Below, piece by piece: positions 12,383 to 15,434 of a DNA stretch of 61,019 nucleotides (positions are counted from its first letter, which is position 1; every line of letters begins with the position of its first letter). The DNA is from Poseidonia sp. (GTDB taxonomy: Archaea; Thermoplasmatota; Poseidoniia; Poseidoniales; Poseidoniaceae), in contig JBMYQB010000006.1 in NCBI GenBank assembly GCA_049600935.1, positions 1 to 61,019 of the forward strand, written 5' to 3'. The position numbers and the translations under genes are program-made. A model generated the notes under the pieces. The model was not told the origin of the DNA. It did no database searches and saw only the letters and a list, made by a program, of their open reading frames with translations.

Positions 12383-12433
12383 GGATTGAATGTGGGACGG
12401 CTCCCCTTCAAGACTTTGGGTCCAACGCCTCGC

Positions 12434-13393
12434 TCAGAGGTCCAGAACGTACCCAAACATCAGAGGAAGAACAATGCTCGCATCGCTTTGGATATTGAAC
12501 CGTGGAGTGTCAACCCCAAGTTTTCCCCAGGTGATTTTTTCGTTGGGTGGAGCGCCCGAATACCCGCCGTACGAAGCGCTCGCATCGGTGATTTGACAAA
12601 ACCAAGACCACAGCGGGACATCGGTTTCTTCGAGGTCCTGATGAAGCAGGGGGACCACGCATATCGGGAAATCCCCGGCGATACCGCCACCCGACTGCAG
12701 GAACGCCAGTGGTGATTGGTGGCCTCGGTAGAAATCGATGAGGTGCGTCATGTAGTGCGTACCGCTCAACACGATATTTGGGCTTAATTTCCCTTCCGAG
12801 CACCGAGCAGCAAAGATGTTGCCCAGCGTGGAATCTTCCCAACCTGGAACGTACAACGGAAGGTTACACTCCGCTGCGGCCAAGAGCCAGGAATGTTGGG
12901 CTTCGCCTTGGTAGGAGCCTGCGAGTTCGCCTGAACGAAGGAGACGGTACAGAAACTGGTGAGGAAGGAGGGCTTGATCGCTGTGGTGAGCTTCCTTCCA
13001 CAGACGCATCAAAGCGTGCTCAATCGTCCGTATGGCCTCTTCCTCAGGAATACAAACATCGGTCACTCGGTTCAATTTCCGCTTGAGAAGGTCGTGCTCG
13101 TCCTCGGCCGTCAGGTCGTCGGGAGAAGGGATGTCAACATAGGCATCCCGAGCAACAAGATGGAAGAGGTCCTCCTCAAGGTTGGCACCCGTGCACGAAA
13201 TCGCAGCGATATGACCGGCGCGAATCATCTGGGCAAGGCTACGGCCAATCTCGGCCGTGCTCATGGCACCTGCGAGAGTGGCGAAGACGGTCCCGCCTTT
13301 TTCGATATGATCAACCAACGAGGAGGAGGCTCGGCGGAGCGTACCCGCATTGAAGTGGCGATAGTGTTCGTCCACGAAGGCTCGAACCGACAT
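12434..13393 (-). CDS. Deoxyhypusine-synthase-like protein (bacterial-type; putative homospermidine synthase)
   Basis: HFNAGTL, LAGAMSTAEIG, TGANLEED, GGGIAGDFPICVVP, QITDASASYGGYSGAPPNEKITWGK. Confidence 0.88.
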   Translation of the reverse strand: MSVRAFVDEHYRHFNAGTLRRASSSLVDHIEKGGTVFATLAGAMSTAEIGRSLAQMIRAGHIAAISCTGANLEEDLFHLVARDAYVDIPSPDDLTAEDEHDLLKRKLNRVTDVCIPEEEAIRTIEHALMRLWKEAHHSDQALLPHQFLYRLLRSGELAGSYQGEAQHSWLLAAAECNLPLYVPGWEDSTLGNIFAARCSEGKLSPNIVLSGTHYMTHLIDFYRGHQSPLAFLQSGGGIAGDFPICVVPLLHQDLEETDVPLWSWFCQITDASASYGGYSGAPPNEKITWGKLGVDTPRFNIQSDASIVLPLMFGYVLDL

Positions 13394-13396
13394 CGC

Positions 13397-13810
13397 TCAA
13401 ACCTCCGTAAGGAACCGGTCGACACGCTCTCTGCGTACACACTCAATGGCAGGCATTCGCTCGAGCAATCGGTCATGGAGGTAGGTAGCGATATCGTCAG
13501 GATCGGTCGCTCCACAGGTGAAACAATCGATGGCCAGCAGTCCTCGGTCGGCGTAGCAATGGGCCGTGATGTGGCTTTCGTCAATCAACACAACAGCGGC
13601 AAAGCCCGGAGGCGAGGTGCTCCCGTCAAAGGGAGCAAGGTGGGCGTGAACTTCGGTTGCGGGGCTCTTCCGAACGGCTTCCCTCATCTGCGAAAACAGC
13701 CATCGATAGGCTGCTTCATCCTCAAAGTTCGCGTTCACGTAGTCCAGAAAGACATGGGCACCTCGACTGGGGTTGACCGTCATGTGTTCACCTGCCGGCT
13801 GCCGGACCAT
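13397..13810 (-). CDS. speD: Pyruvoyl-dependent decarboxylase proenzyme of the SpeD/SpeH (AdoMetDC) fold
   Basis: GFAAVVLIDESHITAHCY (E-S autocleavage site), IDCFTCG. Substrate uncertain (see findings). Start could be 13810 or 13783. Confidence 0.85.
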   Translation of the reverse strand: MVRQPAGEHMTVNPSRGAHVFLDYVNANFEDEAAYRWLFSQMREAVRKSPATEVHAHLAPFDGSTSPPGFAAVVLIDESHITAHCYADRGLLAIDCFTCGATDPDDIATYLHDRLLERMPAIECVRRERVDRFLTEV

Positions 13811-13833
13811 TCTCTTTTTCAAACTACCGAAAT

Positions 13834-14835
13834 TTATTCTCCGTCAAATTCAGCAAAAAATGTTGCATTGAACGGCAACTGAGTAGTTTTTTTGGCTCGC
13901 ATCCAACGCCCATTCTGGCGCGCAAGAGCATGGCTTGCGATGATCTTCGTCGCCAGCATGGCGGCCGTAAACTGCGTCAAGACACCGTTTTCTTGGGCCA
14001 CAATTTCGTTCACGTCAGCGCTGATGACCACCACGTCGGGGTTCGCAAACAGCGTTTCAATGGTCTCAACCGCCTGCCAGAAGCTCAAACCTCCTGGAAC
14101 AGGTGTGCCCGTGGCAGGGACAAGAGAACCGTCGAGGCCGTCAATATCCAGCGTGAAATGCACGGGGCCACTGAGGGAGCGAAGTTCATTCAACCATCGC
14201 TGCCAAGCCTCATCGCCCGAGTGGGGGTGTTGGGTATCACGAGCGAAGAAGGTCGTGATGCGGTCGTCCGCTTCAATGCGCTCCAATTCTTCCTTGCTGT
14301 AAGCTCGAATGCCGGCCTGTAAGAGGCGTCCTGCCCCAACATCAAGACTACGTGAAGCCGCACAGGCATGTGAAAAAATCTCTCCGTCAAGGGATGAACG
14401 CAAGTCTGCATGAGCGTCAAGTTGGACCAAGGTCAACCTTGTGAGGTCCCCTGCCACGGCGGGATGGTGGCGAGCAGCGTGAACAAGCGGCGGAAGGATG
14501 CCGTGTTCCCCTCCCAAAAACACTGGAAACATGTCCCCGTTGTAGAAGGTGCGAGCATGGGCTGCAAGTTCATCAAGTTGGCCACGCAAGGTGGCGGCGG
14601 TTCCTTCCCAGACCGATTCGGTGGCAAGGACATTCCCTGCAGGAAGGTCGGCACCCAAACGGTCGTCAAAGAGTTCCACCTGCGCGCTGGCATCAATGCA
14701 GGCTTGTGGTCCATCACACGCTCCCGTGCCGTAGGAAGTGGTCAATTCGTAGGCGAGCGGCACGACGGCGATATCGGTCGGACCATCGGCTTTCGGGAGA
14801 CCGAGAAACGCGCCCTCCTCGAAGTCCACTGACAT
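13834..14835 (-). CDS. speB: Agmatinase (ureohydrolase family)
   Basis: ELTTSYGTG, GGEH, LDAHADLR, HACAA, LDIDGLDGSLVPATGTPVPGGL, DVNEI. Confidence 0.9.
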   Translation of the reverse strand: MSVDFEEGAFLGLPKADGPTDIAVVPLAYELTTSYGTGACDGPQACIDASAQVELFDDRLGADLPAGNVLATESVWEGTAATLRGQLDELAAHARTFYNGDMFPVFLGGEHGILPPLVHAARHHPAVAGDLTRLTLVQLDAHADLRSSLDGEIFSHACAASRSLDVGAGRLLQAGIRAYSKEELERIEADDRITTFFARDTQHPHSGDEAWQRWLNELRSLSGPVHFTLDIDGLDGSLVPATGTPVPGGLSFWQAVETIETLFANPDVVVISADVNEIVAQENGVLTQFTAAMLATKIIASHALARQNGRWMRAKKTTQLPFNATFFAEFDGE

Positions 14836-15014
14836 GCATATTGCGGGTCGCCGCCCCCTTCATCATCCTGCCGATGAGGAAGCACCCCCGATTTTAGGCG
14901 CCAAAGTGTCGGTTTCAAGAAAATACATGGAACACTTAATATGGGTCGGTGACCAATAAAATATAGCAACGGGAACCGATTATCGCCGGTTTCCGCCTGC
15001 ACGGAGGGAAAACG

Positions 15015-15434
15015 ATGGGAATGACACTTGCCGAGCTTACCAAAGCCATTCAGCAGCACATTGACTTGGACATGGACGCCGAAGTCGCTCAGGGCATGGC
15101 CGAGCACGCGCTCGGATTCTTTGGATTCTACAATCGAATCATTGACAATGCCCTTGAGCCAACCGACCGCAACCTGTTTTACATGTTCCAAGATTACGAC
15201 CTCCTCACCACGGAGTCCGAGGAAACCACGCTCTGGGATGGACGAGAATGGCGCATCCACTACTGGAAGTTCAAGCCCGACCTACGAGAGCGCGTAGAAG
15301 CCTACATGCAGCGAAACTTGCAGGAAGACGAAATTGACCCCTTTGCTGACATCTACGCCACGGACGGGCCAAGCATTTGGACCCGAGAGGGCGAAAAAGT
15401 GGCCAACCCCAATGCCTTCACCTCCGATTGGTGA
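15015..15434 (+). CDS. Conserved Thermoplasmatota hypothetical protein (DUF6015-like)
   Basis: LGFFGFYNRIIDNALEPTDRNLFY...GREWRIHYW recalled as the DUF6015 pattern. GGAGG RBS. Family name not verified. Confidence 0.6.
   Translation: MGMTLAELTKAIQQHIDLDMDAEVAQGMAEHALGFFGFYNRIIDNALEPTDRNLFYMFQDYDLLTTESEETTLWDGREWRIHYWKFKPDLRERVEAYMQRNLQEDEIDPFADIYATDGPSIWTREGEKVANPNAFTSDW

Follow-up and report, generated by a model that had tools for sequence, protein, structure and literature searches.

A three-gene operon of Poseidonia sp., an archaeon of Marine Group II (MGII; Poseidoniales), probably makes sym-homospermidine from arginine through the coupling of agmatine, with no need for S-adenosylmethionine (SAM) or pyridoxal 5'-phosphate (PLP). 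The operon lies in a stretch of 61,019 nt (contig JBMYQB010000006.1, positions 1-61,019, assembly GCA_049600935.1), the whole of which was analysed and is called the window here. It consists of three co-oriented open reading frames (ORFs) on the minus strand, encoding an arginase-fold ureohydrolase, then a pyruvoyl enzyme with the fold of SpeD, the S-adenosylmethionine decarboxylase (AdoMetDC), and then a protein resembling deoxyhypusine synthase (DHS):

13834..14835, minus strand: arginase-fold ureohydrolase, operon gene 1, 333 aa (PF00491, 148 bits)
13397..13783, minus strand: SpeDA, predicted SpeD/AdoMetDC-fold pyruvoyl-dependent arginine decarboxylase proenzyme, 128 aa (PF02675, 58 bits)
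12434..13393, minus strand: SpeY-like deoxyhypusine-synthase-fold protein, 319 aa (PF01916 (DS), 133 bits)

The genes most likely encode a predicted arginine decarboxylase (ADC), diagmatine synthase and diagmatine ureohydrolase (DUH). In the route that we propose, the SpeD-fold proenzyme would cleave itself between Glu69 and Ser70 to form its pyruvoyl cofactor and would decarboxylate L-arginine to agmatine, as judged from two orthologues of the same order. The SpeY-like protein, by analogy with bacterial SpeY, would use NAD and Lys291 to transfer the 4-guanidinobutyl part of one agmatine onto another, yielding N1,N9-bis(guanidino)homospermidine (G44G, or 'diagmatine'), and the arginase-fold enzyme would then strip both guanidino groups as urea to leave homospermidine. 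The operon is a typical representative of a system already described, whose gene cluster (speB-speDA-speY) was published in 2023 from MGII/III and Ca. Poseidoniales (Li, Liang, Phillips and Michael, JBC 2023; PMC10407285). As the underlying biology appeared between 2023 and 2026, what the window offers is one more member of the system, not a new discovery.

The SpeD-fold protein

The best Pfam and NCBIfam matches of the SpeD-fold protein are AdoMetDC models (the Pfam AdoMet_dc match was taken on a longer form of the ORF, 13397-13822) and its public annotation is S-adenosylmethionine decarboxylase. It scores 69.2 bits against the AdoMetDC equivalog TIGR03330, under the cut-off of 75.65; indeed, all three operon proteins score below the curated values of the NCBIfam equivalog models. 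In an alignment to the T. maritima AdoMetDC (1tlu), E69-S70 (with the pyruvoyl serine), H75 and C90 are kept. The residues S70, H75 and C90, counterparts of S63, H68 and C83 in T. maritima, are invariant in 80/80 orthologues, the 80 loci counted here and below being the best of those in 355 species-representative genomes with a gene related to that of the SpeD-fold protein. The HTWPE motif of T. maritima reads HCYAD in the window protein, with Ala78 replacing the proline, and this position is occupied by A, S or L in every one of the 80 orthologues. Loss of a conserved proline has been described as the main difference between ADC-type proteins and genuine AdoMetDCs (PMC10407285), and we infer from the text of that paper that the residue lost from HTWPE is the one marked in its Fig. 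8.

Two proteins of this clade, AIF02979 from the MGII/III euryarchaeote KM3_15_H06 and DAC51064 from Ca. Poseidoniales isolate 70165, both encoded in speB-speDA-speY clusters, have been purified (Li et al., JBC 2023; PMC10407285). They decarboxylate arginine only, with a Km of 2.1-2.8 mM, ornithine and lysine being inactive, and neither gene restores spermidine synthesis in an E. coli speD strain (PMC10407285). The product of the operon copy, which is the one AdoMet_dc gene in the assembly, is best read as a neofunctionalised ADC and not as an AdoMetDC. An earlier note on this DNA, made from the letters alone, had proposed just this; the activity is demonstrated for the two orthologues of the clade (PMC10407285), and both the missing proline and the absence of the spermidine synthase SpeE (see below) agree with it.

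The DHS-like protein

Among NCBIfam models, the DHS-like protein scores highest on NF001980 (homospermidine biosynthesis protein), with 128.9 bits where 450 are required; it fails all DHS equivalogs, the best of them giving 102.9 (cut-off 434). Catalytic positions were mapped by way of a lineage profile aligned to human DHS (6XXJ). The catalytic set is kept, with K291, E285 and W289 matching human K329, E323 and W327; K291 and E285 are each found in 80 of the 81 Poseidoniales DHS-like sequences. Human H288, D243 and D316 correspond to D241, N192 and Y278, three residues conserved in at least 79/81 of these sequences, and the spermidine-binding Asp243 and Asp316 of human DHS are thus replaced by the uncharged N192 and Y278. 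Both spermidine-binding aspartates are likewise missing from T. thermophilus CdmS, which has Phe and Leu instead (PMC10981699).

The lineage to which the window protein belongs is very large, with 217 representatives below 1e-30 (50% clustering); a search with one lineage representative scored 8000 candidates, all below 1e-20. It has an invariant signature of its own (WEDST, GGGIAGDF, YSGA and NEKITW), and every NCBIfam equivalog model is missed by 10/10 of its representatives. The named bacteria among its best 120 matches include Nitrospira, Gammaproteobacteria, Bryobacterales and Phycisphaerales, among others. Three bacterial members were examined: one sits in an AguA-DS-SpeA(ADC)-AguB cluster, a second adjoins SpeA plus SpeB, and the third has no informative neighbours. 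Both of the informative contexts agree with the SpeY pathway. No match turned up when phages were searched with SpeY.

Two plasmid-borne bacterial proteins, from Sphingomonas and Trichormus, pass the G44G-synthase model NF002699 with 564-592 bits (cut-off 500). They carry F and C or L at the D243/D316 positions, and read GGGVPKNF where the window protein reads GGGIAGDF. The Sphingomonas SpeY gene directly follows a gene for a type III PLP decarboxylase, an arrangement that has been reported for the tested Rhizorhabdus (Li 2026; PMC13625781).

The arginase-fold ureohydrolase

The first protein of the operon, encoded by the one arginase-fold gene of the assembly, scores 142.6 bits against the agmatinase equivalog TIGR01230, under its cut-off of 174.3, and its best match in the PDB is 3pzl, an agmatine ureohydrolase (82 bits). 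Its GGEH, DAHAD, DIDGLD and DVNE motifs are invariant or nearly so in 68 ureohydrolase orthologues; we take the first three to be the ligand motifs of a binuclear Mn centre, an assignment made from arginase structures. Homology annotation names the protein agmatinase/SpeB, and it is probably a putative diagmatine (G44G) ureohydrolase. Two SpeY-associated 'SpeB' ureohydrolases hydrolyse G44G, their activity on agmatine being undetectable (PMC10981699, PMC13625781); no sequence determinants of DUH substrate preference have been published (Li 2026; PMC13625781).

Linkage of the three genes across Poseidoniales

In 80/80 species-level loci, down to about 50% protein identity, the SpeD-fold gene has the DHS-like gene as its direct neighbour, and the speDA-speY pair persists despite differing upstream genes. 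All three genes stand in the order seen in the window in 69 of the 80 loci. This operon arrangement is not due to chance. The remaining 11 loci (L062, L064, L066-L068, L070-L072, L074, L078 and L083), which come from a more distant Poseidoniales sub-lineage, have no adjacent ureohydrolase gene, and each of these genomes has one arginase-fold match elsewhere; the association with SpeY holds for the ureohydrolase as well, within the operon or, for these 11, elsewhere in the genome. A class I/II aminotransferase gene lies upstream of speDA-speY in the distant sub-lineage (seen in L064).

SpeDA and SpeY (DS) also occur fused in a single chain, as in the public protein representatives P0153 and P0173. 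A third, P0154, is a 756-aa fusion of SpeDA, a methyltransferase of the NNMT/PNMT/TEMT type and SpeY (DS domain), whose domain composition hints that N-methylated products may be made in some organisms, possibly eukaryotes.

All of the best 80 SpeD-fold loci are labelled as Poseidoniales or euryarchaeote metagenome-assembled genomes (MAGs), bar one contig. This exception (L069, NZEQ01000019.1), labelled Verrucomicrobiales bacterium ARS100, carries the whole operon with 81-83% protein identity to the window, and is most likely of Poseidoniales origin, having been mis-binned into a bacterial MAG.

Polyamine genes elsewhere in the genome

The assembly, window included, amounts to 1.87 Mb in 125 contigs and is 85% complete. 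No spermidine synthase domain (Spermine_synth, PF01564) was found in the whole of it, nor in any of 101 genomes sampled across the order, 55 of which are at least 90% complete. Since none of these 101 genomes carries SpeE, its absence is not an artefact of incompleteness. The assembly contains no pyruvoyl ADC of the PdaD type (PvlArgDC, PF01862) either. The earlier note had asked for exactly these two genes, speE and pdaD, to be looked for genome-wide, and both searches came out as its reading of the SpeD-fold protein would have it. No ornithine/arginine decarboxylase of the alanine-racemase fold (PF02784) was detected in the assembly, and the genome, at 85% completeness, therefore has no recognisable diaminopimelate decarboxylase (LysA).

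A carboxyspermidine route was considered and rejected: the carboxynorspermidine decarboxylase NspC (TIGR01047) was not found in the assembly, and there is one truncated ORF of the saccharopine-dehydrogenase family without an NCBIfam match. This ORF lies at a contig end (C58:3-875, L094; Sacchrp_dh_C, 62 bits) and is a loose end of the polyamine inventory, since bacterial homospermidine synthase and carboxyspermidine dehydrogenase both belong to this family.

A second gene of the DS family, at C81:318-1334 (L001), encodes a canonical DHS that passes the equivalog cut-off (367 against 350) and to which the DHS-like protein of the operon is 24% identical. Its presumptive substrate, the archaeal translation factor aIF5A, is present with the modification site SKPGKHGSAK, found by scanning the six-frame translation for the motif; PF01287, the Pfam model for eIF-5a, gave no match in the assembly and missed the Haloferax control too. 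The aIF5A gene is full length on contig C55; C46 has, at a contig end, part of a second and nearly identical copy, which points to strain heterogeneity within the MAG. The genome also encodes TiaS, the agmatine-using tRNA-Ile2 enzyme (C20:16302-16643). SpeDA is the sole ADC detected in the assembly and would therefore also supply the agmatine used by TiaS to make agmatidine in tRNA-Ile2.

Gene junctions and the upstream region

The layout of the operon given in the earlier note, with three co-oriented genes, a first gap of 11-50 nt depending on the choice of start and a second of 3 nt, was confirmed. Two motifs read from the sequence bear on the junctions:

13788..13793, minus strand: Shine-Dalgarno-like AGGTGA before the SpeDA ATG at 13783
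13401..13406, minus strand: GGAGGT, Shine-Dalgarno motif for SpeY, within the 3' end of SpeDA

The TAA stop codon of the ureohydrolase gene ends at 13834, and the candidate starts of the SpeD-fold gene are TTG 13822 (gap of 11 nt), ATG 13810 (23 nt) and ATG 13783 (50 nt). The last is the best supported, by the Shine-Dalgarno motif, by the length of most homologues (128 aa, judged on the 120 closest among the matches listed) and by the public gene call of the contig, which is also 128 aa; the gap between ureohydrolase and SpeDA is hence taken as 50 nt. The ATG of the DHS-like gene, at 13393, sits 3 nt past the TGA of the SpeD-fold gene, and this short distance, together with the GGAGGT inside the upstream gene, suggests that translation of SpeDA and SpeY may be coupled. 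Downstream, 51 nt (12383-12433) without a T-run separate the SpeY stop from a gene on the same strand for a 1027-aa surface protein, and it is possible that transcription reads through from SpeY into this gene.

The divergent intergenic region upstream of the operon measures 179 nt and contains two strongly conserved non-coding blocks, as determined by comparison of 24 loci, in which the flanking proteins share 65-90% identity:

14929..14970, minus strand: conserved block GTTGCTATATTTTATTGGTCACCGACCCATATTAAGTGTTCC, with two TATA-like elements, from the alignment of the 24 loci
14857..14875, minus strand: conserved leader element ATCGGCAGGATGATGAAGG, 22-40 nt upstream of the ureohydrolase ATG

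The core of the first block, CCGACCCATATTAA, is invariant bar one substitution in one sequence, and the block probably represents divergent promoters for the operon and for a DUF6015 gene. In the leader element, ATCGG and GA.GG show little or no variation. A riboswitch or other leader RNA was considered upstream of the operon and rejected: there was no Rfam match, and RNAalifold gave -0.4 kcal/mol with no covariation. A regulatory upstream ORF starting from ATGATG is also unlikely, because the ATG triplets are not kept in more distant loci; the peptide downstream of them is unconserved.

The DUF6015 gene (15015-15434, plus strand), divergent from the operon, encodes a protein of 139 aa that is 92-100% identical across the first 30 loci inspected and was found in 64 Poseidoniales loci. 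The neighbouring proteins in the inspected loci are 63-93% identical; the DUF6015 protein is an unusually constrained small protein.

Discussion

Our analysis places the window operon with the MGII/III and Ca. Poseidoniales cluster described in 2023, from which, going by its published description, we found no difference of substance. The two come from the same archaeal order and share the same three genes, and neither is accompanied by SpeE or by a canonical ADC or ornithine decarboxylase; in both, the SpeD-fold protein has the processing Ser, the His and the Cys and lacks the AdoMetDC proline. Li 2023 drew the pathway via putrescine, the archaeal SpeY and SpeB not being assayed there (PMC10407285), and this was also the order of steps given in the earlier note. 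Subsequent work on bacteria has superseded the view of SpeY behind it. The CdmS protein of T. thermophilus couples two agmatines to bis-guanidino homospermidine, which is trimmed by a ureohydrolase (Kobayashi 2024; PMC10981699), and seven further SpeY proteins from diverse phyla, whose source genomes encode three non-homologous kinds of ADC, accumulate G44G in agmatinase-null E. coli, homospermidine appearing only when a ureohydrolase is present (Li 2026; PMC13625781). All eight bacterial SpeY proteins tested thus convert two agmatines to G44G (PMC10981699, PMC13625781). Putrescine is probably not an intermediate of the Poseidonia pathway, because bacterial SpeY proteins use agmatine and the ureohydrolases associated with them spare it. 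The end product named in the earlier note, and its proposal that a marine archaeon has a homospermidine pathway independent of SAM, are supported; its reassignment of the decarboxylase was right, while its intermediate was probably wrong and its claim of novelty is not supported, the cluster having been described already (PMC10407285).

The resemblance to the bacterial diagmatine pathway (CdmS/SpeY with DUH/DIH) extends to the DHS fold, with Lys and Glu kept and both Asp lost, and to the clustering of SpeY with an ADC and an arginase-fold hydrolase. Unlike the bacterial systems, the archaeal host here also carries a canonical DHS. Canonical DHS proteins (human 6XXJ and the copy on contig C81) share with the window protein the fold, the T-x-A/G-x-x-E-E NAD motif and the Lys of WGK, but their H288/D243/D316 are replaced by D/N/Y in the window protein, the gene for which sits in a polyamine operon. 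The comparison with Crenarchaeota made in the earlier note does not hold in the sense of a common origin. The crenarchaeal SpeD-derived ADC (Saccharolobus solfataricus) is, like SpeDA, a pyruvoyl enzyme of the AdoMetDC fold that decarboxylates arginine, but the published tree shows the MGII proteins to be a different, independent emergence of ADC activity from SpeD, grouping them with proteins of Gimesia, Solirubrobacter and stramenopile algae (PMC10407285). Crenarchaeota moreover keep a bona fide SpeD and SpeE beside the ADC (as in the Sulfolobus controls), whereas the window genome has no SpeE.

Several observations weigh against the proposed route. Gene content by itself fits a pathway through putrescine equally well, and the literature searched holds no assay of any archaeal SpeY or of its ureohydrolase. 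The DHS-like protein scores 71.2 bits against the G44G-synthase model NF002699 (cut-off 500), is 22-23% identical to the Sphingomonas and Trichormus proteins that pass it, and has N and Y at the positions where CdmS has F and L. The incompleteness of the assembly counts here as well. Close Poseidoniaceae share the entire neighbourhood in synteny, with genes for an M14 peptidase, the DUF6015 protein and the 1027-aa surface protein among it; synteny at this range is little guide to function, and the weight comes from the distant loci, at about 50% identity, and from the fusions.

Four other readings have to be set against the agmatine-coupling route. If SpeDA made agmatine, a true agmatinase converted it to putrescine and the DHS-like enzyme built homospermidine from putrescine, the gene content would be the same; 3pzl, which the ureohydrolase matches best among solved structures, carries the annotation agmatine ureohydrolase, the DHS-like lineage is so far from the two proteins passing the G44G-synthase model that its substrate could differ, and the pathway is still drawn in this way in Li 2023 (PMC10407285). 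We nevertheless consider this unlikely, as every SpeY tested uses agmatine and a canonical agmatinase would remove, and thereby starve SpeY of, its substrate, as argued by Li 2026 (PMC13625781). The ureohydrolase falls under the agmatinase equivalog cut-off, TiaS would face competition from a true agmatinase for the sole source of agmatine, and bacterial DHS-like genes of the window type were found beside ADC and guanidino hydrolase genes in two of the three members examined. The gene speY, furthermore, goes with speDA, the arginine form, and not with the ornithine form speDC, which is found with speD/speE, casdh/casdc or hss (PMC10407285). The ureohydrolase missing the agmatinase cut-off and the need of TiaS for agmatine from SpeDA, which an agmatine-sparing ureohydrolase would suit, both fit the agmatine route. 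It is improbable, too, that the DHS-like lineage makes some other guanidino-polyamine, or an asymmetric coupling product, that the ureohydrolase trims. Such an activity would agree with the failure of 10/10 representatives to pass any NCBIfam equivalog cut-off, with the lineage's own invariant signature and with the further chemistry in some members at which the P0154 fusion hints, but the catalytic Lys, Glu and Trp are retained, the contexts of ADC plus guanidino hydrolase follow the pattern of the SpeY pathway, and the MGII gene was itself named speY by Li 2023 (PMC10407285).

The two remaining readings give either the DHS-like or the SpeD-fold protein another role. A model reportedly put forward by Prunetti and colleagues in 2016 for the modification of aIF5A in Haloferax volcanii resembles a scheme in which the DHS-like enzyme would attach a group derived from agmatine directly to aIF5A, to be trimmed to deoxyhypusine by the ureohydrolase. 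The presence of aIF5A with its SKPGKHGSAK site in a genome where no spermidine route was detected is in favour of this scheme, which is very improbable given that a separate canonical DHS on contig C81 passes its cut-off, that the window protein is so distant from it and that the DHS-like lineage is abundant in bacteria. Bacteria use EF-P, not aIF5A. Least probable of all, with hardly any chance of being right, is that the SpeD-fold protein is a genuine AdoMetDC feeding an unrecognised aminopropyltransferase: the best family matches and the public annotation speak for it, but no SpeE occurs in 101 genomes of the order, the TIGR03330 cut-off is missed, the conserved proline is lost, and the two orthologues of the order act only on arginine in vitro and have no AdoMetDC function in vivo.

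The agmatine-coupling route would carry no SAM or PLP cost and would release two urea per homospermidine, and SpeDA would in addition provide agmatine for tRNA-Ile2 decoding. It also bears on public annotation, in which the SpeD-fold protein is labelled S-adenosylmethionine decarboxylase and related genes deoxyhypusine synthase, labels that it would correct. In the surface ocean, Marine Group II archaea count as some of the most abundant microbes, and none has been cultured, which is why their polyamine is known by inference only. As no spermidine route was detected, the canonical DHS must draw its aminobutyl group from another donor. As a tentative suggestion, on the doubtful side, the DHS-like proteins may form a distinct large SpeY lineage, and the operon may also play an essential second part, giving the canonical DHS its 4-aminobutyl donor for aIF5A, in the form of homospermidine or an agmatine-derived intermediate. 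There is a parallel in Paramecium, which has replaced spermidine with homospermidine, and Li 2026 raise the question of whether archaea have agmatine-dependent DHS proteins as well as spermidine-dependent ones (PMC13625781). The window genome carries one DHS homologue of each type, SpeY-like and canonical. If the suggestion is true, a single archaeon would have an agmatine-dependent and a polyamine-dependent DHS homologue, which would answer this question, and an archaeon that is among the most abundant in the ocean would depend on homospermidine for the modification of a translation factor.

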